A DNA stretch of 25,096 bases from Verrucomicrobiales bacterium (GTDB taxonomy: Bacteria > Verrucomicrobiota > Verrucomicrobiia > Verrucomicrobiales > Akkermansiaceae). The notes beneath the pieces were generated by a model. That model saw only the letters and a list, made by a program, of their open reading frames with translations. It was not told the origin of the DNA and searched no databases. Within the stretch, counting starts at the first letter, position 1. Each line of letters begins with the position of its first letter. The stretch is taken from positions 1 through 25,096 of the forward strand of contig JBNNED010000097.1 of assembly GCA_050285825.1 (NCBI GenBank), read 5' to 3'. Shown here piece by piece: positions 1-23,569 of the stretch. A program made the position numbers and the translations under genes.

Positions 1-194
1 AATACCTCATCCTCGGCTGCAAGGCCCGCGCGGCTCTGCGCGGCTCCTACATGGCCAGCCTAGAAGACATTGAAGCCGTCGCCCAGGCCGTCCTCGCCCA
101 CCGCGTCCTCACCAACTTCGCCGCCGAATCCCAAGGCATGACCTCCAAAAAAATCGTCGCCCGCCTCGTCGAAGAAATGGGAGAGGAAGACTAA
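1..194 (+). CDS. MoxR-family AAA+ ATPase, C-terminal fragment (5' end outside window)
   Basis: Frame starting at nt 3 reads YLILGCKARAALRGSYMASLEDIEAVAQAVLAHRVLTNFAAESQGMTSKKIVARLVEEMGEED* (TAA 192-194). This matches the MoxR lid region (..KARA.L.G.......DI..VA..VL.HR...NF.AE..G), and DUF58 and BatA genes follow, as is typical. Confidence 0.9.
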   Translation, partial: YLILGCKARAALRGSYMASLEDIEAVAQAVLAHRVLTNFAAESQGMTSKKIVARLVEEMGEED

Positions 195-252
195 GAGACT
201 GTCAGATATCCAGAGACCAGAACCCAGAAACCAGAACCCAGAGCAGGTCAGA
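195..252 (+). repeat. Heptamer tandem array (NNCCAGA) upstream of four-helix-bundle gene 1
   Basis: CAGA recurs at 211, 218, 225, 232 and 239 (exact 7-nt period), with looser copies at 203 and 249: atccaga gaccaga acccaga aaccaga acccaga. Confidence 0.9.
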
Positions 253-623
253 ATGACGGCAAGTTCTCACAATTATGAACATTTGGAAATTTGGAAACGC
301 TCATGCCGTCTGGCCGTGACACTTTGCAGTGCTCTCAACACAGCACAACCCTACGCCTACGTGACCAAATCCAAAAATCCGTTATCTCCATACCTTCCAA
401 CATCGCAGAGGGTGCAGATCGCCCCAGCACCCCGGACTTCCTACGTTTTTTGGGCTACAGCCGAGCATCATGCGCCGAACTCCGCACATAATTACTGATA
501 TTCAAAGAAGTGAGCCGAAAACTCAACCAGACTCCTGACTTAGACCTCAATGCAATGATCCGAGAAGCTCACGAACTTTCAAAAATGATTCAAAGTTTTG
601 CAAACCAGCTTACCAAGAATTAA
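253..623 (+). pseudogene. Four helix bundle protein (23S rRNA IVP / TIGR02436-like), disrupted
   Basis: The N-terminus [21 protein letters not shown] (ORF 253) shifts frame near 355-360 (tac gcc _ta cgt gac, one base missing from YALRD) into [43 protein letters not shown]. An in-frame TAA at 489-491 falls where the family has Q (CAA), and the frame then continues LLIFKEVSRKLNQTPDLDLNAMIREAHELSKMIQSFANQLTKN* to 623. Confidence 0.88.
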
Positions 624-645
624 CACCGCAGACCCAGCGTTCGCC

Positions 646-677
646 ACTCTGGCCTCTGAACTCTGGTTTCTGGTCTC
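646..677 (-). repeat. Inverted heptamer array (TCTGG units) downstream of four-helix-bundle gene 1
   Basis: TCTG recurs at 648, 655, 662 and 669. tctggtttctgg (662-673) is the exact reverse complement of ccagaaaccaga (224-235), and ttctggtctc (668-677) is the exact reverse complement of gagaccagaa (213-222). Confidence 0.88.
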
Positions 678-685
678 TTTAAAGA

Positions 686-1570
686 ATGAAATACAAATTC
701 CTAGATAGCGAGGTTCTCGCCCGCCTGGGGGCCTTGCCCCTCGAATCCCGGCACTCCATGATCGGGAACGTGGCCGGGCGCCACCGCTCGCCGCACCGTG
801 GTTCCTCGGTCGAATTCGCGGAATACCGCAAATACGTCCCGGGCGACGACACCCGGCGGCTCGACTGGAAGGCTTTCGCGCGCTCGGACCGCTTCTACAT
901 CAAGGAATTTGAAGCCGACACCAACCTGCGCGCCTACTTCGTCGTCGATTCCTCCGGTTCCATGGACTTTCACTCGGAAGAGCACCCGACGAAAATCCAC
1001 TTCGCAAATCAACTCGCCGCCACCCTCGCCTACCTCATCGTCAACCAAGGCGACGCCGCCGGTCTCTCCGTCTGCAACGACCGCCTCCACCTCGACATCC
1101 CTCCCTCCCGTCGCCCCGCCCAGCTCCAGCACATCTTCGACTCCCTCGAAATGGTCGAACCGCGCGGAGAAACCGGCATCATTCCCGTCCTCCATCAGAT
1201 CGCCGAGAAAATCCAGCAACGCGCCCTCGTCATCATTCTCTCCGACCTCTTCACCGACCCCGAAGAGCTCGGCGACGCCCTCCAGCACCTGCGCTTCCGC
1301 AAGCACGACATCGCCGTTTTCCACCTTCTCGACCCCCAGGAAGTCTCCTTCCACTTCGAGCGCCCCCACCGCTTCGTCGACCTCGAAGACGGCACCACCA
1401 TCGTCGCCGAACCCAACCTCATCGTCGATGAATACCACCAGGCACTCAACGACTTCCTCGCCGCCGTCGAAAAAAAATGCCACGACGTCCACGCCGACTA
1501 CCACCTCCTCCAAACGAACCAAAACTACGAAGAAATCATCTCCAATTTCCTCACGAACCGCCTTCACTGA
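686..1570 (+). CDS. DUF58 domain-containing protein (MoxR-associated, vWA-like)
   Basis: Motifs G.HRSPHRGSSVEFAEYRKYVPGDDTRRLDWKAFARSDRFYIKEFEADTN, VDSSGSM and ILSD; position downstream of MoxR. Confidence 0.95.
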   Translation: MKYKFLDSEVLARLGALPLESRHSMIGNVAGRHRSPHRGSSVEFAEYRKYVPGDDTRRLDWKAFARSDRFYIKEFEADTNLRAYFVVDSSGSMDFHSEEHPTKIHFANQLAATLAYLIVNQGDAAGLSVCNDRLHLDIPPSRRPAQLQHIFDSLEMVEPRGETGIIPVLHQIAEKIQQRALVIILSDLFTDPEELGDALQHLRFRKHDIAVFHLLDPQEVSFHFERPHRFVDLEDGTTIVAEPNLIVDEYHQALNDFLAAVEKKCHDVHADYHLLQTNQNYEEIISNFLTNRLH

Positions 1571-1608
1571 AGACGGAAATACGAAAAACTAAGTTACGAA
1601 ATTCTAAA
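1571..1608 (+). repeat. Degenerate heptamer array (..AC[G/T]AA units) upstream of four-helix-bundle gene 2
   Basis: gacggaa atacgaa aaactaa gttacgaa attctaa; the array abuts the ATG at 1608. Confidence 0.7.
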
Positions 1609-1976
1609 TGCCTTCGGACACCAAACAGTTTGATTTGGAAGAACGCACATTTCAGTTTGCCCTGAAAGTGCGGCAAATCGTTGCAAAGCACGATTGGAGC
1701 CGTGAACATTGGAAAGACCTCGACCAAATCATCCGCTCCTCAGGGTCAATAGGGGCAAACTACATCGAAGCAAACGACGGCCTCTCGAAACAAGATTTCA
1801 TCTATCGCATAAAAATCGCCAAAAAAGAAGCCAAAGAGACTCGCTATTGGGCAAGACTTCTTGGAGCCGCCAATCAGGAGCCAGTCACCAGCGAGTTCAG
1901 AGCTATTTATCGCGAAGCCGACGAACTCATGCGAATCCTTGCAACCGTCCTCAAAAACTACCAGCGTAACTCTTAA
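1608..1976 (+). CDS. Four helix bundle protein (23S rRNA IVP / TIGR02436-like), intact
   Basis: 122 aa with DLEERTFQFA...QIIRSSGSIGANYIEAND..SKQDFIYRIKIAKKEAKETRYW..L...E..EL..IL..., the signature of this family. Visibly more AT-rich than the flanking genes. Confidence 0.93.
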   Translation: MPSDTKQFDLEERTFQFALKVRQIVAKHDWSREHWKDLDQIIRSSGSIGANYIEANDGLSKQDFIYRIKIAKKEAKETRYWARLLGAANQEPVTSEFRAIYREADELMRILATVLKNYQRNS

Positions 1977-2026
1977 ACTTTGATGAGAGAACTTTAGAAT
2001 TTAGCATCTTATCATTTAGACTTTCG
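1977..2026 (-). repeat. Inverted heptamer array (TTAG/TTCG units) downstream of four-helix-bundle gene 2
   Basis: TTAG at 1994, 2001 and 2016, TTCG at 2023 (roughly 7-nt period). tttagaattt (1993-2002) is the exact reverse complement of aaattctaaa (1599-1608). Confidence 0.78.
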
Positions 2027-2031
2027 ACCAC

Positions 2032-4074
2032 GTGACCTTCCTCAATCCATTCCTCCTCTACGGCCTGCTCGCCGTGAGCATCCCCATCATCATCCACCTG
2101 CTCAACAGGCGGCGCTTTCGCACGGTGAAATGGGGAGCGATGCAATTTCTCCTCAAAGCCTCCCAGGAATCCCGCGGCAAAAAACGCCTCAAACACATCA
2201 TCATCCTCGCCTGCCGCGCCCTCGCCATCGCCGCCCTCATCTTCGCCATCTCCCGCCCGCTCGTCGGCGGACTCCTCGGCTGGGGTGGTGGCAGCCTCGA
2301 CACCGTCATCATCATCCTCGACCGCTCCGCCAGCATGGAACTCCGTGCGGGCGACGCCCAGGCATCTCTGCGCGAAAGCTCTCTGACCCGGCTCACTGAA
2401 GCGGCGGGCGAGATCAAGGCCGGGCAAGTTCTCTTTCTCGACAGCGCCACCGGCGAGATCCAGGACATCCCGGATCTCTCCGCCCTCCCGCTCCTTTCCA
2501 CCACCGCGCCCACCTCGACCCAGGCCAACATCCCGGCCCTCCTCAACACCGCCATCGATCACCTCGCCGGCGCCCAGGCAGGCCGCAGCGAAATCTGGCT
2601 CGCTTCCGACCTGCAGGAAGCCGATTGGAAAGCCGCCGACAACCAGTGGGAGGCCATCCGCTCCGGCCTCGCCAACCTCCCCAGCCCGCCGAAACTCCGC
2701 ATCCTCACCGCCTCGCCCTCCGCACAGAGCAACAACCAATCTCTCGAACTCCTCTCCGCCCGACGCAGCGGAGACGAGCTCCTTCTCGACCTCCGCCTCA
2801 CCCGCCGCCAGGACCAGGGACAGGCCACGCTGCCGCTCACTTACGTCCTCAATGGTGCCCGCTCCGCCGAACGAATCACCATCAGCGGCCAGGATCTTCG
2901 CTTTCAAAAACGCCTCCAACTCCCCGCCGAACCCGCCTCCGGCCACGGCTGGATCGCCCTGCCCGCCGACCACAACCCGCAGGATAACGAAGTTTTCTTC
3001 GCCTACGGCCCGCCCGAGCCCATCCAGAGCTACCTCGTCACGAGCCAGCCCGGCCCCAGCGCCGAAGCCCTCGCCAAAGCCGCCGCCCCTCCGGATTACG
3101 CCCGCCAGGATTGCCAAATCCTCCAGCCCGCCCAAGCCCAGGAGATCGACTGGCAACGCGCCTCCCTCATCATCTGGCAGGCCCCGCTGCCCACGGGCGA
3201 GCTCGCGACGCGACTACGCGAATTCATCGCCAAAGGCGGCTCGTTCCTCGCCCTTCCGCCGGGAGCGAGCGAAACCGCTTCCGACGCCTCCTTTCTCGGT
3301 CTCTTCTGGGGAGCGCTCCAGAAGTCGCCCGCCGACCAATACTTCATCACCGGCTCCTCCCTGCGCGATGACGGCCCGTGGCAAGACGGCGCCAACGGCA
3401 CGCCTCTGCCCCTCGACAAACTCCAGGCCATCCAACGACGCGAAATCATCGGCGAAGCGGCCGTTCTCGCCGAGTGGGACGACAACAGCCCCCTTCTTCT
3501 TCGCCAGATCGAAGGTCGCGGCAGCGCCATTTTCCTCAACACCCTGCCCGACTACCAATGGTCGAATCTCGAACACACCGCGCTCCACCTCGTCGCCATC
3601 CAGCGCCTCCTCGCCCTCGGTAACGAACGCCTCCACGACGACCACCGCGCCCTCGCCGGCACCCCCGCCGCCCACCCCGGCCCCGGAGAAAGCGCGCAAC
3701 GACTCGACGAAGCTCGCGAAGCCGATCCCGCCAACGCCCCTTACCTCGCTGGCGTTTACCGCTTCGGCGAACGCCTCGTCGCCCTGAACCGACCCGAAAG
3801 CGAGTCCTCCCTCGAGCGGCTCGACCGCAGCAAACTCAATCAACTCCTCGACGGCACCGAGCATTCTCTCTTCGAAGAAAACGCCCAAAGCGACTCCTCT
3901 CTCGTCCAGGAAATCTGGCGCGCCTTCCTCATCGCCATGATTCTCTTTCTCCTCGCCGAAGCCCTCCTTTGCCTGCAACCTAAAACCGCCAGCCGTGCAG
4001 TGGGTAAAATGCCCTCTGGGTACTTCCAGCCCGCTGGCAAACAACCATTAACAAATAACCAATCACCCCATTGA
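2032..4074 (+). CDS. BatA-domain (N-terminal double-transmembrane) membrane protein with vWA-like region
   Basis: GTG start. MTFLNPFLLYGLLAVSIPIIIHLLNRRRFRTVKWGAMQFL is the canonical BatA N-terminus, followed by ILDRSASM (MIDAS-like) and a C-terminal TM segment (EIWRAFLIAMILFLLAEALL). Confidence 0.92.
   Translation: MTFLNPFLLYGLLAVSIPIIIHLLNRRRFRTVKWGAMQFLLKASQESRGKKRLKHIIILACRALAIAALIFAISRPLVGGLLGWGGGSLDTVIIILDRSASMELRAGDAQASLRESSLTRLTEAAGEIKAGQVLFLDSATGEIQDIPDLSALPLLSTTAPTSTQANIPALLNTAIDHLAGAQAGRSEIWLASDLQEADWKAADNQWEAIRSGLANLPSPPKLRILTASPSAQSNNQSLELLSARRSGDELLLDLRLTRRQDQGQATLPLTYVLNGARSAERITISGQDLRFQKRLQLPAEPASGHGWIALPADHNPQDNEVFFAYGPPEPIQSYLVTSQPGPSAEALAKAAAPPDYARQDCQILQPAQAQEIDWQRASLIIWQAPLPTGELATRLREFIAKGGSFLALPPGASETASDASFLGLFWGALQKSPADQYFITGSSLRDDGPWQDGANGTPLPLDKLQAIQRREIIGEAAVLAEWDDNSPLLLRQIEGRGSAIFLNTLPDYQWSNLEHTALHLVAIQRLLALGNERLHDDHRALAGTPAAHPGPGESAQRLDEAREADPANAPYLAGVYRFGERLVALNRPESESSLERLDRSKLNQLLDGTEHSLFEENAQSDSSLVQEIWRAFLIAMILFLLAEALLCLQPKTASRAVGKMPSGYFQPAGKQPLTNNQSPH
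3993..4036 (+). repeat. REP-like palindromic element, long form (copy 1), inside the BatA CDS 3' end
   Basis: ccgtgcagtgggtaaaatgccctctgggtacttccagcccgc (3993-4034) is identical over 42 nt to 23479-23520. Confidence 0.9.
4043..4070 (+). repeat. Orphan heptamer array (AACCAAT-type)
   Basis: aaccatt aacaaat aaccaat cacccca; encodes the last BatA residues and abuts the TTG start at 4071. Confidence 0.65.
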
Positions 4075-6328: not shown

Positions 6329-6898
6329 ATGAAAAAAGGCCTCATCCCGCTTCTCTCCGGCATCTTCCTCTTTTTCTTCTCCTTCTTCATCCTCCCCTTC
6401 TTCGCCCTCTGGCCCTTCTTCAAAAACATCGGCTCGGACGAGCGCTTCGAGCTCCCCGGCGTCCACGAAGCGAAGCTGGAAGAAGCAGGCAAATACGTCC
6501 TCTGGGAGCATTACGACGGCCTCCACGAGAACGTCAGTTTCCAACACGACGAGCCCCTGCCCGCTGACTGGCACTTCGAAGTCCTCGACGCCTCCGGAGA
6601 GGTTCTCGCCCTGACCGAAGACCGCAGCACCAGCAGCAGCGTCAACGAGCGCGTCACCAAACGCTCGCTCGCCACCTTCGAAATCGCCGAACCCACCACC
6701 GTGCGCATCCAAGTCGTCTCCGATGACTCCCCCCGTTTGTTTTCTCTGAAAAAATCGATCTTCGACGGCTTCGTCAAAAACTTCCTCGGCGTCGTCATCT
6801 CAATCATCCTCCTCAGTCTCCTCAGCCTCATCCTCGCCATCTACGGCCTCGTCAAACTCACCCAAAGCCCCAAATCCCCTCCAATTCCTAATTCCTAA
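6329..6898 (+). CDS. Hypothetical membrane protein (N- and C-terminal TM helices)
   Basis: 189-aa ORF with host-like C-ending codons and hydrophobic stretches at both ends. Confidence 0.75.
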   Translation: MKKGLIPLLSGIFLFFFSFFILPFFALWPFFKNIGSDERFELPGVHEAKLEEAGKYVLWEHYDGLHENVSFQHDEPLPADWHFEVLDASGEVLALTEDRSTSSSVNERVTKRSLATFEIAEPTTVRIQVVSDDSPRLFSLKKSIFDGFVKNFLGVVISIILLSLLSLILAIYGLVKLTQSPKSPPIPNS

Positions 6899-6910
6899 TT
6901 CCGCATTCCC
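6883..6910 (+). repeat. Orphan heptamer array (AATTCCT-type) spanning a stop codon
   Basis: aattcct aattcct aattccg cattccc; the TAA at 6896-6898 lies inside the array. Confidence 0.8.
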
Positions 6911-6934
6911 ACCTCCATCATCCTCGCCCCGACC

Positions 6935-7957
6935 ATTGCCAACCTCCGTCTTGTCGGCCTCGGCCTCGGCTTCGCAGAAGTCCGGGTTGCCGCCGCCGCC
7001 CGGGCCGATCATGCCGATGACTTCCTGGAATGGATCGCCGATGGAAAGCACGGAGAAATGGCCTGGCTCGAAAAAAACCCGGAGCGCCGCTGTGATCCCC
7101 GCGAGGTCCTCCCCGGCTGCCGCAGCGTCATCACCCTCGGCCTCAACTACTTCCCCGGCTACGCCCACCCGAACCCGGCCTACCGCATCGCCCGCTATTC
7201 CTGGAATGAGGACTACCACGATCTCATCGGCGACAAACTTAAGGATCTCGATCTCGCCCTCCAGGACATGGGCGGCCAACAACGCTACTACGTCGACACC
7301 GGCCCCGTCCTCGAACGCGATTTCGCCAGCGCCTCCGGCCTCGGCTGGAATGGCAAATCCTGCGTGCAGATTCACCGCAAGCTCGGCCCCTGGCTCTTCC
7401 TCGCGGAAGTCCTCACCACCCTCGAGTTCCCACCCGACCAAGCCTCCCGCGATTACTGCGGAAAGTGCACCGCCTGCCTCGACGCCTGCCCGACCCAGGC
7501 CATCACCGCCCCCCACCAGCTCGACGCCCGCCGCTGCATTTCCTACCTCACCATCGAAAATCACGGTCCCATCCCCGAGGAATTCCGCCGCGCCATTGGC
7601 GACCACCTTTACGGCTGCGACGACTGCCTCGCGGTCTGCCCCTGGAACCGTTTCGCCCAAAAATCGCGCCAATCCCAGTTCCACGCCCGCACGGAAATCT
7701 TCGCCCATTCCCTCACCGACTTTCTCGCGCTCAATGACGAGGCCTTCCGTCGCCTCTTTAAAAAATCCCCCATCAAACGCCTCAAACTCCCCCGCTTCCT
7801 CCGCAACGTCTGCGTCGTCCTCGGCAACACCGGCACTCCGGATGACCTCCCCTCCCTCGAAAAAGCCGCCCAGCACCCCGATCCCCTCATCGCCGAACAC
7901 GCCAGCTGGGCCATCGCCGAAATCAAGCGCCGCCACGCAAAAATCGCGCCTTTATAA
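6935..7957 (+). CDS. queG: Epoxyqueuosine reductase QueG (start uncertain)
   Basis: YVDTGPVLERDFASASGLGWNGK, CGKCTACLDACPT, RCISYLTIE and YGCDDCLAVCPWN. Homology extends upstream of the ATG at 7058 (LGFAEVRVAAAARADHADDFLEWIADGKHGEMAWL); 6935 is an in-frame ATT given as a provisional start. Confidence 0.93.
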   Translation: MANLRLVGLGLGFAEVRVAAAARADHADDFLEWIADGKHGEMAWLEKNPERRCDPREVLPGCRSVITLGLNYFPGYAHPNPAYRIARYSWNEDYHDLIGDKLKDLDLALQDMGGQQRYYVDTGPVLERDFASASGLGWNGKSCVQIHRKLGPWLFLAEVLTTLEFPPDQASRDYCGKCTACLDACPTQAITAPHQLDARRCISYLTIENHGPIPEEFRRAIGDHLYGCDDCLAVCPWNRFAQKSRQSQFHARTEIFAHSLTDFLALNDEAFRRLFKKSPIKRLKLPRFLRNVCVVLGNTGTPDDLPSLEKAAQHPDPLIAEHASWAIAEIKRRHAKIAPL

Positions 7958-8722: not shown

Positions 8723-9145
8723 TTGCGTGCTATTCCCTTGATCGCGGGTATCGCTCTATTCTCCAGTAGCATTTCTGGTCTTCTTCAGGCTCAAGAGGCA
8801 GCTGAAAATTATCGGGCTAAGGTAGGTCCAGTTCTGGAGCAATACGTTTTGGGAAAGCAATCAAAACACTATTACACGTCCGAGCAACCCAAGCCAATGA
8901 CGCTTGATGATCAGATCGAGCTTATCCATGAACTACAAAAGCTGAATTTCGATATGGATCGGCAAGAGTCGCCCTCATCGCTAAGATATCAACTTTTCGG
9001 TAGTGTTGCTCTATTGGTTGCAGGCCAATGGCTTATCGTTGATAGAAGCAAGACAAAGTTACGAAAGCCAGTGACTCAACAAGGCGATACAAACCAAGCC
9101 ACTACTCGCCGCGAATCGGAGATTTCAGATAACTATAACCGCTAA
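8723..9145 (+). CDS. AT-rich hypothetical exported/membrane protein, probable gene-cassette ORF
   Basis: 140-aa ORF with a TTG start, signal-peptide-like N-terminus and hydrophobic segment near the C-terminus. Codon usage is unlike the host's (many A/T-ending codons), and the last ~22 codons run into an attC-like sequence. Confidence 0.55.
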   Translation: MRAIPLIAGIALFSSSISGLLQAQEAAENYRAKVGPVLEQYVLGKQSKHYYTSEQPKPMTLDDQIELIHELQKLNFDMDRQESPSSLRYQLFGSVALLVAGQWLIVDRSKTKLRKPVTQQGDTNQATTRRESEISDNYNR

Positions 9146-9197
9146 CTCCATGTCAAAAGCACGCTTCCAGTAGCAGTAGGCGGCCTGAGACACTGGT
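9074..9197 (+). mobile_element. Degenerate attC-like (integron cassette) site
   Basis: ACTCAAC (9074-9080) fits RYYYAAC and is followed by AAGGCG...; partial internal complementarity (CTACT / AGTAG). The tail QQGDTNQATTRRESEISDNYNR resembles C-terminal tails I recall from verrucomicrobial cassette ORFs that read into attC. There is no clean GTTRRRY at the 3' end (CTGGTATAAA). Confidence 0.5.
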
Positions 9198-9199
9198 AT

Positions 9200-9235
9200 A
9201 AAAAAAAGGACGGCTCATCACGAGTCGTCCTTTTT
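9200..9235. terminator. Bidirectional rho-independent terminator
   Basis: aaaaaggacggctc-atcac-gagtcgtccttttt stem-loop with A- and T-tracts, between convergent genes. Confidence 0.88.
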
Positions 9236-12950: not shown

Positions 12951-13183
12951 TTGAATAAATCAATCCAAGCATCGAGGACGATCAAGTGAGACAGCGGCTG
13001 ACTCCAACGAGCTCTCCCCCCAAAAACCAAATGATCAAAAAACTCAAAAACCAAAGCAGCCGCTGAAACGAGGTGGAGGTTTTCAATCGCCAAGCCTCCA
13101 ACACGGCTGACTACCAACCGATCACTTCTGAAAAAACAGCAGCCGCCAGACCGCGCAGCCCAGAGGCAAGCCCAGCACCGGTT

Positions 13184-13218
13184 AACTAATGACTAACAAC
13201 CAATGACCAATGACTCAC
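13184..13218 (+). repeat. Orphan heptamer array ((A/G)AC(C/T)AA(T/C)) just downstream of rnr
   Basis: aactaat gactaac aaccaat gaccaat gactcac, five units at an exact 7-nt period. Confidence 0.82.
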
Positions 13219-23478: not shown

Positions 23479-23520
23479 CCGTGCAGTGGGTAAAATGCCC
23501 TCTGGGTACTTCCAGCCCGC
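23479..23520 (+). repeat. REP-like palindromic element, long form (copy 2)
   Basis: Identical over 42 nt to 3993-4034; lies between divergent genes. Confidence 0.9.
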
Positions 23521-23527
23521 CGAATTC

Positions 23528-23569
23528 CTCCCTACTCCCTACTCCCTACTCCCTGCTTTCTACTCAATG
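23528..23569 (+). repeat. Orphan heptamer array (CTCCCTA-type)
   Basis: ctcccta x3, ctccctg, ctttcta, ctcaatg; the last unit contains the ATG of the RluA-family gene. Confidence 0.88.

Follow-up and report, generated by a model that had tools for sequence, protein, structure and literature searches.

PF05635 four-helix-bundle genes within inverted heptamer arms at stop-to-start junctions of a verrucomicrobial moxR operon: a possible counterpart of rRNA intervening sequences

Introduction

Why are two spacers of a single operon each filled with a small gene that is itself enclosed in a pair of complementary repeats? The question is raised by the moxR-DUF58-batA operon of a Verrucomicrobiales bacterium (Akkermansiaceae; assembly GCA_050285825.1, contig JBNNED010000097.1), located at the beginning of the 25,096-nucleotide stretch of DNA analysed here (hereafter, the window). 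The small genes belong to the PF05635/TIGR02436 family, which was first found in 23S rRNA intervening sequences (IVSs). A previous interpretation made from the DNA letters (the sequence-only reading) proposed that these genes are wrapped in inverted arrays of 7-nt repeats that pair in the polycistronic mRNA and loop out the enclosed gene, or else that they form a transposase-free mobile cassette; the two genes looked like independent arrivals.

Two cassettes in the moxR operon

Spacer 1 (sp1) separates moxR from the DUF58 gene, and spacer 2 (sp2) separates the latter from batA. The features of the region are as follows.

3..194, forward strand: 3′ end of a moxR-type AAA ATPase gene (AAA_lid_2; Pfam PF17863, E 4.3e-10; from the ORF list), stop codon TAA at 192-194
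195-685: cassette 1 as a whole, filling the moxR/DUF58 gap
205..245, forward strand: 5′ arm of cassette 1, about five CCAGANN heptamers, core pairing 212-243 (TRF period 7/14; inverted repeat I1)
253..621, forward strand: passenger of cassette 1, a PF05635/TIGR02436 four-helix-bundle pseudogene (three-frame translation; tblastn)
647..678, forward strand: 3′ arm of cassette 1, NNTCTGG heptamers, ending 7 nt upstream of the DUF58 start
686..1570, forward strand: DUF58/VWA gene, a host gene with a cassette on either side (Pfam PF01882, E 2.4e-45)
1571-2031: cassette 2 as a whole, filling the DUF58/batA gap
1576..1608, forward strand: 5′ arm of cassette 2, CGAA/CTAA units (inverted repeats I2/I6; homologous arms in orthologs L034, L088, L068 and L048)
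1608..1976, forward strand: passenger of cassette 2, an intact 122-aa four-helix-bundle protein of the SIGANYIEA subfamily (profile and ortholog matches)
1993..2025, forward strand: 3′ arm of cassette 2, TTAG/TTCG units, ending 6 nt upstream of the GTG start of batA
2032..4074, forward strand: BatA-type gene of the aerotolerance operon, the downstream host gene (Pfam PF07584, E 2.5e-21)

Both spacers contain PF05635 sequence that is AT-rich compared to the flanks (GC content of the cassettes 0.43-0.53 vs 0.60-0.70), as the sequence-only reading had it, and the two genes do belong to different subfamilies (SIPSNIAEG for gene 1, SIGANYIEA for gene 2), but gene 1 is a pseudogene.

The arms of cassette 1 (212-243/647-678) are 32 nt long, 81% complementary and far above the chance level. 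They include the previously described 12-nt perfect complement (224-235/662-673), their period of 7 is pronounced (lag-7 score of 16 vs at most 4 at other lags), and the duplex formed by the arms alone has a predicted energy of -44.5 kcal/mol (z -6.9) that none of 300 shuffled sequences reaches. In a 511-nt fold, the long-range stem appears in the MFE structure as well as in the centroid.

The passenger of this cassette is split between two reading frames, +1 from 253 to about 357 and +3 from about 345 to 621; in alignment with an ortholog, the former frame covers residues 3-33 (265-357) and the latter residues 34-120 (~345-617). Comparison with the intact orthologs L060 and L077 using tblastn places a single frameshift near 345-357, and an in-frame TAA (489-491) occupies a position where the orthologs have a conserved Gln. 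The fragment still matches Pfam PF05635 with 57.5 bits, but with these lesions the gene is dead. Logan contigs of one run (X1) contain the lesions in identical letters, but this run is possibly the source sample of the window assembly and is therefore not independent support; no empty-allele reads were seen alongside the Logan contigs matching the window, the one DNA run with raw reads from the same study did not cover this stretch, and no RNA run contained it.

In cassette 2, the situation is reversed, with an intact gene and weak arms. The encoded protein matches PF05635 with 55.2 bits (cut-off 33.8, positions 4-105 of 106) and TIGR02436 with 78 bits (cut-off 24), its closest structure is PDB 2RLD (E 3.6e-13), which has five chains, and orthologs at the same site are 47-64% identical. 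The arms (1576-1608/1993-2025; 33 nt, 73% complementary) begin 5 nt past the DUF58 stop, and the 5′ arm contains the A of the passenger ATG (1608-1610). The 10-nt perfect complement at 1599-1608/1993-2002 is present as reported, but 13 of 300 shuffles form a duplex at least as stable as that of the arms (-13.1 kcal/mol, z -1.9), the period of 7 is marginal (lag-7 score of 5.0 vs 4.5 for the best other lag), and a 481-nt fold is no better than shuffled sequences (z +0.28). What makes these arms credible as such is solely the presence of strong ones in orthologs at this site; in L048, all 41 of 41 positions form Watson-Crick pairs. The claim of inverted heptamer arms around both genes stands for cassette 1, and in the case of cassette 2 it is made credible by the arms of the orthologs rather than by those in the window.

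Association of PF05635 genes with heptamer arms

The gene together with its inverted heptamer arms is a true recurrent module that is specific to PF05635. Within this genome, six of the seven PF05635 genes are armed, each of the armed ones occupying a stop-to-start junction of co-oriented genes. In sister and family genomes, 17 of the 26 best PF05635 copies have arms, compared to 1 of 156 control placements, an enrichment of inverted heptamer flanks of the kind that the sequence-only reading suggested to look for. The two spacers of the moxR operon allow comparison at a fixed site: when filled with a PF05635 gene, they show arms with z of 3.6-27.5 in 24 of 25 cases (the exception, L046, has z -1.2), whereas the same spacers filled with other genes have z below 2 in 12 of 15 cases, the three high values being 3.8, 6.4 and 8.1 (in L072 sp2, L080 sp1 and L083 sp1). 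Co-orientation with the neighbors holds for all copies of the genome and for 43 of the 52 flanks in the family sample. Cassettes occupy at least seven different junctions, and the module is also found in unrelated operons, namely metK/ahcY, gyrB/gyrA, cysD/cysN and sdhA/sdhB. Cassette 1 has the features of this PF05635-heptamer cassette, i.e., co-orientation and the stop-to-start fill, its dead ORF apart; cassette 2 has them with weak arms.

The arm sequences differ among the cassette copies of the genome, and at sp2 the score is 28.8 for the two arms of one cassette but 11.9 for arms combined from different cassettes, which indicates arm co-evolution. The idea of a unique heptamer for each cassette is only partly true, given that all sp1 orthologs share the CCAGA core. 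The idea that each arm comprises five units, to match a protein pentamer, was discarded: the number of units ranges from about 2 to 7, without a peak at five.

Age, inheritance and decay of the cassettes

Roseibacillus, Haloferula and Luteolibacter also carry both cassettes at these junctions, subfamily and arm core being shared across several genera by the occupants of a given junction, and the cassette trees are congruent with the trees of the host gene, DUF58. These observations show that both cassettes predate the split of the three genera and the present lineage, and have been inherited vertically. They are two distinct but ancient residents and not recent independent arrivals, contrary to the sequence-only reading.

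The comparison of moxR operons in relatives reveals filled, decayed and empty spacers, with a patchy distribution that amounts to 11-14 changes on the tree of 78 relatives. The states form a decay series, from the intact gene through the pseudogene (cassette 1 here), the truncated gene (L071 and L078, which keep the arms with 41 codons of the gene) and the bare hairpin (L018, L021, L028 and L043) to the empty junction, which is either 9-15 nt long or consists of an overlapping stop/start (TGATG/ATGA). In the closest relatives, both cassettes are absent, and the sp2 junctions are 9-15 nt long. The sp2 hairpins of L032 and L053, which were considered as further remnants, are GC-rich REP-type elements instead.

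Where the ORF is intact, dN/dS is 0.02-0.22. The arms of close ortholog pairs are 86-95% identical in six pairs and 78% identical in a seventh (L068/L088), compared to 9-79% for non-arm noncoding positions and 42-74% for third codon positions; this set consists of seven of nine pairs, the remaining two (0.44 and 0.51) having unreliable arm alignments. These substitution patterns show that both the protein and the arms of intact cassettes evolve under purifying selection. Selection of this strength on both parts is compatible with a role that benefits the host and equally with a selfish one.

The mobile cassette suggested by the sequence-only reading finds no counterpart in these data: near-identical cassette copies were not found in the genome, nor target duplications in comparisons of filled and empty junctions, nor new insertion sites among the relatives, nor an associated enzyme. 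Recent mobility or homing was rejected, given the lack of target duplication and of conflict between cassette and host trees.

Comparison with known systems

The closest known system is the ORF-bearing IVS in the 23S rRNA of Coxiella burnetii, Leptospira, Brucella and Xanthomonas. Both encode a PF05635 protein in ~430-490 nt of DNA with a GC content below that of the host; in both, terminal inverted repeats form a long stem around the ORF, tandem heptamers immediately precede it, the distribution is patchy and the ORF is prone to decay (PMC4990558). The analogy with IVSs made in the sequence-only reading thereby gains a concrete link: in the helix 45 IVS of C. burnetii, three GACAGAT heptamers precede the S23p ORF and the stem is cut by RNase III (PMC4990558). 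The authors of that study regard the ORF as expendable (PMC4990558), whereas in many lineages the cassette ORF is under strong purifying selection. Another difference is the host site, the cassettes being found at stop/start junctions within protein-coding operons as opposed to rRNA helices: terminal inverted repeats enclose the insert as in an IVS, and no rRNA or other Rfam family was detected in the whole window at the gathering threshold.

Heptamer arrays themselves are known from several bacteria, and the cyanobacterial STRR repeats are among the relatives with which they can be compared. Inverted pairs of intergenic heptamer arrays have been described in Xanthomonas (GGGAATC) and Nostoc (GGGGAYT), with 70-75 convergent pairs in Xanthomonas and with positions that are stable between species (Rehm et al., 2015, PMC4692102), and heptanucleotide elements have been reported in Geobacter metallireducens (PMC2700814). 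The published arrays resemble the cassette arms in the period of 7, the number of units (2 to 7 or more) and the location, mostly amid co-oriented ORFs near stop or start codons. They differ in that no enclosed gene family is named and that they have been read as G-quadruplex or regulatory repeats, whereas the G-poor or varied arrays of the cassettes go together with a PF05635 gene or what is left of one.

At the protein level, the counterpart is Avd, the accessory protein of diversity-generating retroelements (DGRs), a homologous four-helix bundle that forms a positively charged pentameric barrel and binds a structured RNA encoded adjacent to its gene, all five protomers contacting an RNA stem-loop (bioRxiv 10.1101/2023.10.23.563531). 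The five chains of 2RLD add to this likeness. Unlike DGRs, the cassettes have no nearby reverse transcriptase or TR/VR pair; the only RVT_1 match, on contig C52, lies in an hsdM/hsdS restriction-modification/defence island.

REP/REPIN-RAYT systems and MITEs share with the cassettes short hairpin-forming intergenic repeats among co-oriented genes, as well as the existence of gene-less hairpins, but they have a genome-wide consensus, whereas arm sequences are particular to each cassette. An element of the MITE or IS type was rejected given the differing arms and the lack of target-site duplications and of transposase association. A link to RAYT was likewise discarded: two of the three Y1_Tnp matches were inspected (C326 and C383), and these carry unrelated GC-rich REP hairpins. 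Finally, inteins and group I introns resemble the cassettes in the patchy occupation of a precise site, with intact, degenerate and empty states, but the cassettes lack an endonuclease, and because their phylogenies match that of the host, reinvasion is not shown.

Proposed mechanism and alternative explanations

The reading that we favor, at about an even chance of being correct, is that of an IVS-type cassette, i.e., a promoterless PF05635 gene with complementary 7-nt arms that takes up the whole stop-to-start gap and is a long-lived commensal or selfish resident. Under this scheme, the cassette would be transcribed within the operon mRNA, where the arms would pair to form a long-range stem with the 400-nt passenger looped out. 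Because the arms lie directly next to the stop and start codons, with 17+7 and 5+6 unpaired nt outside the arms of cassettes 1 and 2, respectively, and empty sites are 9-15 nt long or overlapping, the proposed geometry, with the upstream stop brought close to the downstream start, holds; the ~11-24 unpaired nt that looping would leave are near the empty-site spacing, and we propose that this is why a translationally coupled junction can accommodate the insert. The stem, like that of the homologous IVS in 23S rRNA, would be a likely substrate of RNase III, which is encoded in all 27 good family genomes and was not found in the present 77%-complete assembly. The encoded protein is predicted to be an Avd-like pentameric RNA-binding barrel, most likely acting on its own armed transcript, and, given that the last base of the 5′ arm of cassette 2 is the A of the ATG, autoregulation would be possible. 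Overall, the cassette would be a commensal or selfish resident that is not actively jumping.

The mismatches in the arms do not favor the RNA over the DNA level, since in the sense strand there are 16 G·U vs 32 A·C, i.e., no excess of G·U. It is thus conceivable, albeit quite improbable in our estimate, that the arms function in DNA, as hairpins, cruciforms or repeated binding sites for a nuclease or recombinase acting in trans, similar to REP/RAYT or Ssn-type systems. The four-helix-bundle gene would then be only one of several possible cargos. Apart from the missing G·U signature, such an element would account for the heptamer pairs of Xanthomonas, published without a named gene (PMC4692102), for the 44 scattered, mostly solo period-7 arrays of this genome, and for a second type of cargo, a PF13366 gene for a GxxExxY nuclease-fold protein (C301:515-862) that sits in inverted arms of the CGCGAAA type in the same genome. 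It is, however, at odds with the unrelated REP hairpins of the Y1/RAYT-like genes, with the lack of near-identical copies, target duplications and new sites among relatives, and with the strict co-orientation with host operons and the purifying selection on the ORF, which suggest that it is expression that is constrained.

Less probable still is a domesticated regulatory module, in which the stem, alone or together with the protein, has been retained by the host as a device for mRNA processing or translational coupling that sets the ratio of MoxR, DUF58 and BatA. The location of the stem exactly at stop/start junctions and the retention of the ORF and arms across genera, under purifying selection, would be expected of such a device. 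The 11-14 independent state changes, the loss of both cassettes in the closest relatives and the pseudogene in cassette 1 would not, considering also that neighboring lineages manage with an overlapping stop/start and that the same module occurs in operons unrelated to moxR.

Mere coincidence, with ordinary heptamer microsatellites (STRR-like slippage arrays) beside an unrelated small gene, is hardly credible: solo heptamer arrays are frequent near start and stop codons and the arms of cassette 2 taken alone are not significant, but the arms are complementary to each other and specific to their cassette, enriched at PF05635 genes, absent or weak around most other genes in the same spacers, and conserved beyond neutral sites.

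Extending the IVS-type reading, we tentatively suggest, while considering it unlikely in full, that PF05635 cassettes are widespread enzyme-less passengers of rRNA helices and coupled stop/start junctions. The heptamer stem would hide the insert from the host, either by looping it out, so that ribosomes that terminate on the gene upstream still reach the downstream start across the base of the stem, or through removal by RNase III, and the cassette's own Avd-like pentamer would bind the stem units as a control. If true, this would link the heptamer repeats of bacteria, so far unexplained, to rRNA IVSs and to the Avd fold.

Implications

In a literature search that covered sources other than subscription journals, no account came to light of heptamer arms around PF05635 genes located elsewhere than in rRNA. 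Gene and heptamer stem form one conserved module that is not bound to rRNA and whose life cycle can be read from residence through decay and the bare hairpin to loss. This bears on a question that is more than 30 years old, namely the function and origin of rRNA IVSs and of the S23p/four-helix-bundle ORF, and also on the meaning of over-represented heptamer repeats in bacteria. For genome annotation, the module accounts for many genes labeled "four helix bundle protein" and for orphan hairpins and heptamer arrays at gene junctions. Because cultured Roseibacillus, Haloferula and Luteolibacter carry the moxR-operon sites, they offer a practical system for the study of RNase III processing, coupling across the stem and Avd-like RNA binding. 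Cultured strains with the sp2 cassette include Roseibacillus persicicus KCTC 12988, R. ishigakijimensis KCTC 12986, Haloferula chungangensis CCUG 61920, H. rosea KCTC 22201 and Luteolibacter sp. Populi.

Heptamer arrays outside the cassettes

In this genome, period 7 is far above periods 5, 8, 10 and 11 among short tandem arrays. Both in the genome and in the window, solo arrays are common beside start and stop codons, and a few heptamer families are reused among the solo arrays of the genome.

Two PF05635 cassettes in the moxR operon

The moxR-DUF58-batA operon contains two real IVS-type cassettes, one dead and one alive with eroded arms. The host is placed in Akkermansiaceae/Verrucomicrobiales by its DUF58 orthologs and comes from an algae-associated metagenome (assembly G000; 2.72 Mb, 77% complete), of which the window is one entire contig (25,096 bp). 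The relevant features (coding regions of the operon from the ORF list and Pfam) are:

3-194, + strand: MoxR-type ATPase, C-terminus
212-243 / 647-678, + strand: cassette 1 arms, inverted repeat, 32 nt, 81% complementary
686-1570, + strand: DUF58/VWA protein
1576-1608 / 1993-2025, + strand: cassette 2 arms, 33 nt, 73% complementary
1608-1976, + strand: gene 2, intact 122-aa ORF (PF05635/TIGR02436 profiles)
2032-4074, + strand: BatA-type protein

As the sequence-only reading had it, both spacers (195-685 and 1571-2031) are AT-richer than their surroundings (GC 0.43-0.53 vs 0.60-0.70) and contain a four-helix-bundle sequence, which profile search identifies as PF05635/TIGR02436. The perfect complements that it reported, of 12 nt in cassette 1 and of 10 nt within the cassette 2 arms, are exact. 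Its central observation, a gene between inverted heptamer arms in each spacer, stands in part: the cassette 1 arms hold, but gene 1 is dead and the cassette 2 arms are weak by duplex, lag and fold.

The cassette 1 arms are period-7 arrays of CCAGANN (5') and NNTCTGG (3') units according to TRF, with a lag-7 score of 16 (other lags, at most 4). Their duplex alone reaches -44.5 kcal/mol (z -6.9; 0/300 shuffles), and the MFE structure and the centroid of a 511-nt fold both contain the long-range stem. Gene 1 changes frame, from +1 over 265-357 (ortholog residues 3-33) to +3 over ~345-617 (ortholog residues 34-120), and has TAA at 489-491 where intact orthologs have a conserved Gln; judging by these lesions, it is a pseudogene. 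The same letters occur in Logan contigs of run X1, which is possibly the source sample of the window itself and thus lends the lesions no independent support.

In cassette 2, the arms are eroded and the gene is alive. The arm duplex (-13.1 kcal/mol) is reached by 13/300 shuffles, the lag-7 score is 5.0 vs 4.5 for another lag, and the predicted stability of the 481-nt fold is unexceptional (z +0.28).

Heptamer arms across the genome and the family

Inverted period-7 arms enclose six of the seven PF05635 copies in G000, all six in gaps between co-oriented housekeeping genes (metK|ahcY, gyrB|gyrA, cysD|cysN, where the copy is frameshifted, sdhA|sdhB, moxR|DUF58 and DUF58|batA); the seventh, in sdhC|sdhA, is GC-rich and armless. 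The best-scoring copies from 26 other genomes of the family, one per genome, bear out the predicted enrichment: arms scoring at least 14 flank 17/26 copies vs 1/156 control placements of identical geometry in the same loci. Lag-7 identity among the 17 armed copies is mostly 0.5-0.86 (range 0.31-0.86), and 43/52 flanking coding regions in this sample are co-oriented with the PF05635 gene.

The moxR|DUF58 and DUF58|batA junctions are insertion hot spots. Other genes fill the first in L044, L048, L065, L068, L076 and L085 and the second in L072 (L-numbers denote loci of relatives), including a ~150-aa DUF6036/DUF2204 nucleotidyltransferase-like ORF and a pair of ~100-aa ORFs. Arms are absent (z <2) from 12/15 spacers filled by other genes; the exceptions are the second spacer of L072 and the first of L080 and L083 (z 3.8-8.1). 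The nucleotidyltransferase-like inserts have no arms, and the ORF pair of L072, which by eye looks like a toxin-antitoxin pair, has a weak arm score (z 3.8).

Ancestry, decay and loss

Reading both spacers in 80 DUF58-ortholog loci revealed empty and filled states at both junctions. In the closest relatives (DUF58 76-83% identical), the DUF58|batA junction is empty (9-15 nt) and the moxR|DUF58 spacer is 30-147 nt long without a gene; in some of these (L009-L017, L019 and L022; ~127-130 nt), a conserved non-heptamer hairpin, TTTGCGG...CCGCAAA, replaces cassette 1. Roseibacillus, Haloferula and Luteolibacter-like genomes carry, at DUF58|batA, a strongly armed gene that shares 47-64% identity with gene 2 (arm z 5.6-27.5; 41/41 Watson-Crick pairs in L048) and, at moxR|DUF58, a gene-1-type gene with CCAGA/TCTGG arms in all.

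At both sites, the cassette protein trees are congruent with the DUF58 trees in all resolved clades, and gene 2 groups with Roseibacillus, like its host gene (78/86 support). This congruence indicates that both cassettes are older than the divergence of these genera and have descended vertically. The suggestion of independent arrivals therefore survives in one sense, since the two belong to different subfamilies and are independent of each other, but the arrivals are not recent. Nor is a mobile cassette borne out: comparison of relatives' junctions showed no target-site duplication, and their loci no cassette at a new site.

The distribution is patchy: 78 taxa require at least 14 state changes at the first site and at least 11 at the second, and the state may change even between very close relatives. 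The cassettes have been lost recurrently, in a series that runs from intact ORFs through pseudogenes (cassette 1 of the window; L044), arms with 41 codons (L071, L078), a 5' arm alone (L075) and bare heptamer hairpins (L018, L021, L028, L043) to empty junctions, either overlapping (TGATG or ATGA) or of a few nt. In the second spacer of L047 and the first of L037, the 5' arm and first ~30 codons are tandemly duplicated (the L037 copies are separated by an N-run), which could reflect misassembly or genuine slippage. In the first spacer of L066, a long (CTT)n microsatellite separates the cassette ORF from the 3' arm.

Constraint on the protein and the arms

Intact orthologs show dN/dS of 0.02-0.22. 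Among seven close pairs with reliable alignments, arm identity is 78% in L068/L088 and 86-95% in the other six, vs 9-79% for non-arm noncoding sites and 42-74% for third codon positions of the same cassettes. In the DUF58|batA series, arm sequence varies between clades while the two arms of each cassette stay complementary (pairing score 28.8 for own arms vs 11.9 for arms of different cassettes). Pairing, arm sequence and protein are thus under constraint in every living cassette.

Known systems and possible mechanism

The nearest known counterpart is the 23S rRNA IVS that carries an ORF. In the 428-nt IVS of Coxiella burnetii, an S23p (PF05635) ORF with three or four tandem GACAGAT heptamers ahead of it is similarly enclosed by an inverted-repeat stem, in which the first repeat is the site of RNase III cleavage; the authors raise the idea of a selfish element that was once mobile (PMC4990558). 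Xanthomonas has pairs of inverted heptamer arrays between co-oriented genes, as here, but with no gene family named (PMC4692102). A search of non-subscription literature turned up no account of heptamer-armed PF05635 genes between the genes of an operon. The DGR protein Avd, a homolog of the PF05635 protein, is a pentamer shaped as a barrel, and all five protomers contact an RNA stem-loop (bioRxiv 10.1101/2023.10.23.563531); the solved structure nearest to gene 2, PDB 2RLD, likewise has five chains.

It is plausible that the arms pair in the mRNA and loop out the passenger, that RNase III cleaves the stem, and that the pentamer encoded by the cassette itself binds. The geometry fits the proposal that pairing brings the upstream stop near the downstream start: 17+7 nt (cassette 1) and 5+6 nt (cassette 2) would stay unpaired, resembling empty-site spacing. 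RNase III is encoded in 27/27 good family genomes and was not found in the 77% complete G000 assembly. Arm mismatches show no sense-strand G·U excess (16 G·U vs 32 A·C, in data that are not independent), so that pairing at the RNA level is an inference.

We consider it unlikely that the arms instead act at the DNA level, with the four-helix-bundle gene one of several possible cargos. This alternative is kept alive by an unrelated small family, PF13366 (PDDEXK_3, GxxExxY), a gene of which lies between inverted CGCGAAA/TTTCGCG arms at 515-862 of G000 contig C301 (L118), so that the armed vehicle is not exclusive to PF05635. A RAYT link was rejected, as the two RAYT-like genes inspected, among three Y1_Tnp matches in G000, are flanked by unrelated GC-rich REPs, and so was a DGR-like one, the sole reverse transcriptase of G000 sitting in a restriction-modification island. 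This defence-type island, on contig C52 (5530-13400), encodes hsdM, hsdS, a 475-aa ORF and the reverse transcriptase (390 aa), with an in-gene CTGAAAA heptamer array at 7111-7148.

Solo heptamer arrays and other repeats

G000 contains 44 stringent period-7 arrays, mostly solo, among which a few heptamer families are reused; periods 5, 8, 10 and 11 yield only 1-9 arrays. The solo arrays in the window are:

4035-4066: AACCAAT-like units
6880-6911: AATTCCT
13017-13055: CAAAAAC
13184-13218: CAATGAC
23523-23564: CTCCCTA

A start or stop codon is within tens of nt of each; none has a complementary partner within 1.2 kb, and they may be left over from cassette arms or form a repeat class of their own. 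Positions 3993-4034 and 23479-23520 hold the same 42-bp element (CCGTGCAGTGGG...CTTCCAGCCCGC), each time with a heptamer array and, beyond it, a start codon downstream; of the element's 8 genomic copies (up to 6 mismatches), only these two adjoin heptamer arrays. A terminator-like hairpin near 9195-9235 lies downstream of a low-GC (~0.45) 140-aa ORF at 8723-9145, which has no Pfam match and is possibly a foreign or orphan gene. On contig C106, an extra solo CCTAATA x5 array lies between the 3' arm of the metK|ahcY cassette and the ahcY start.
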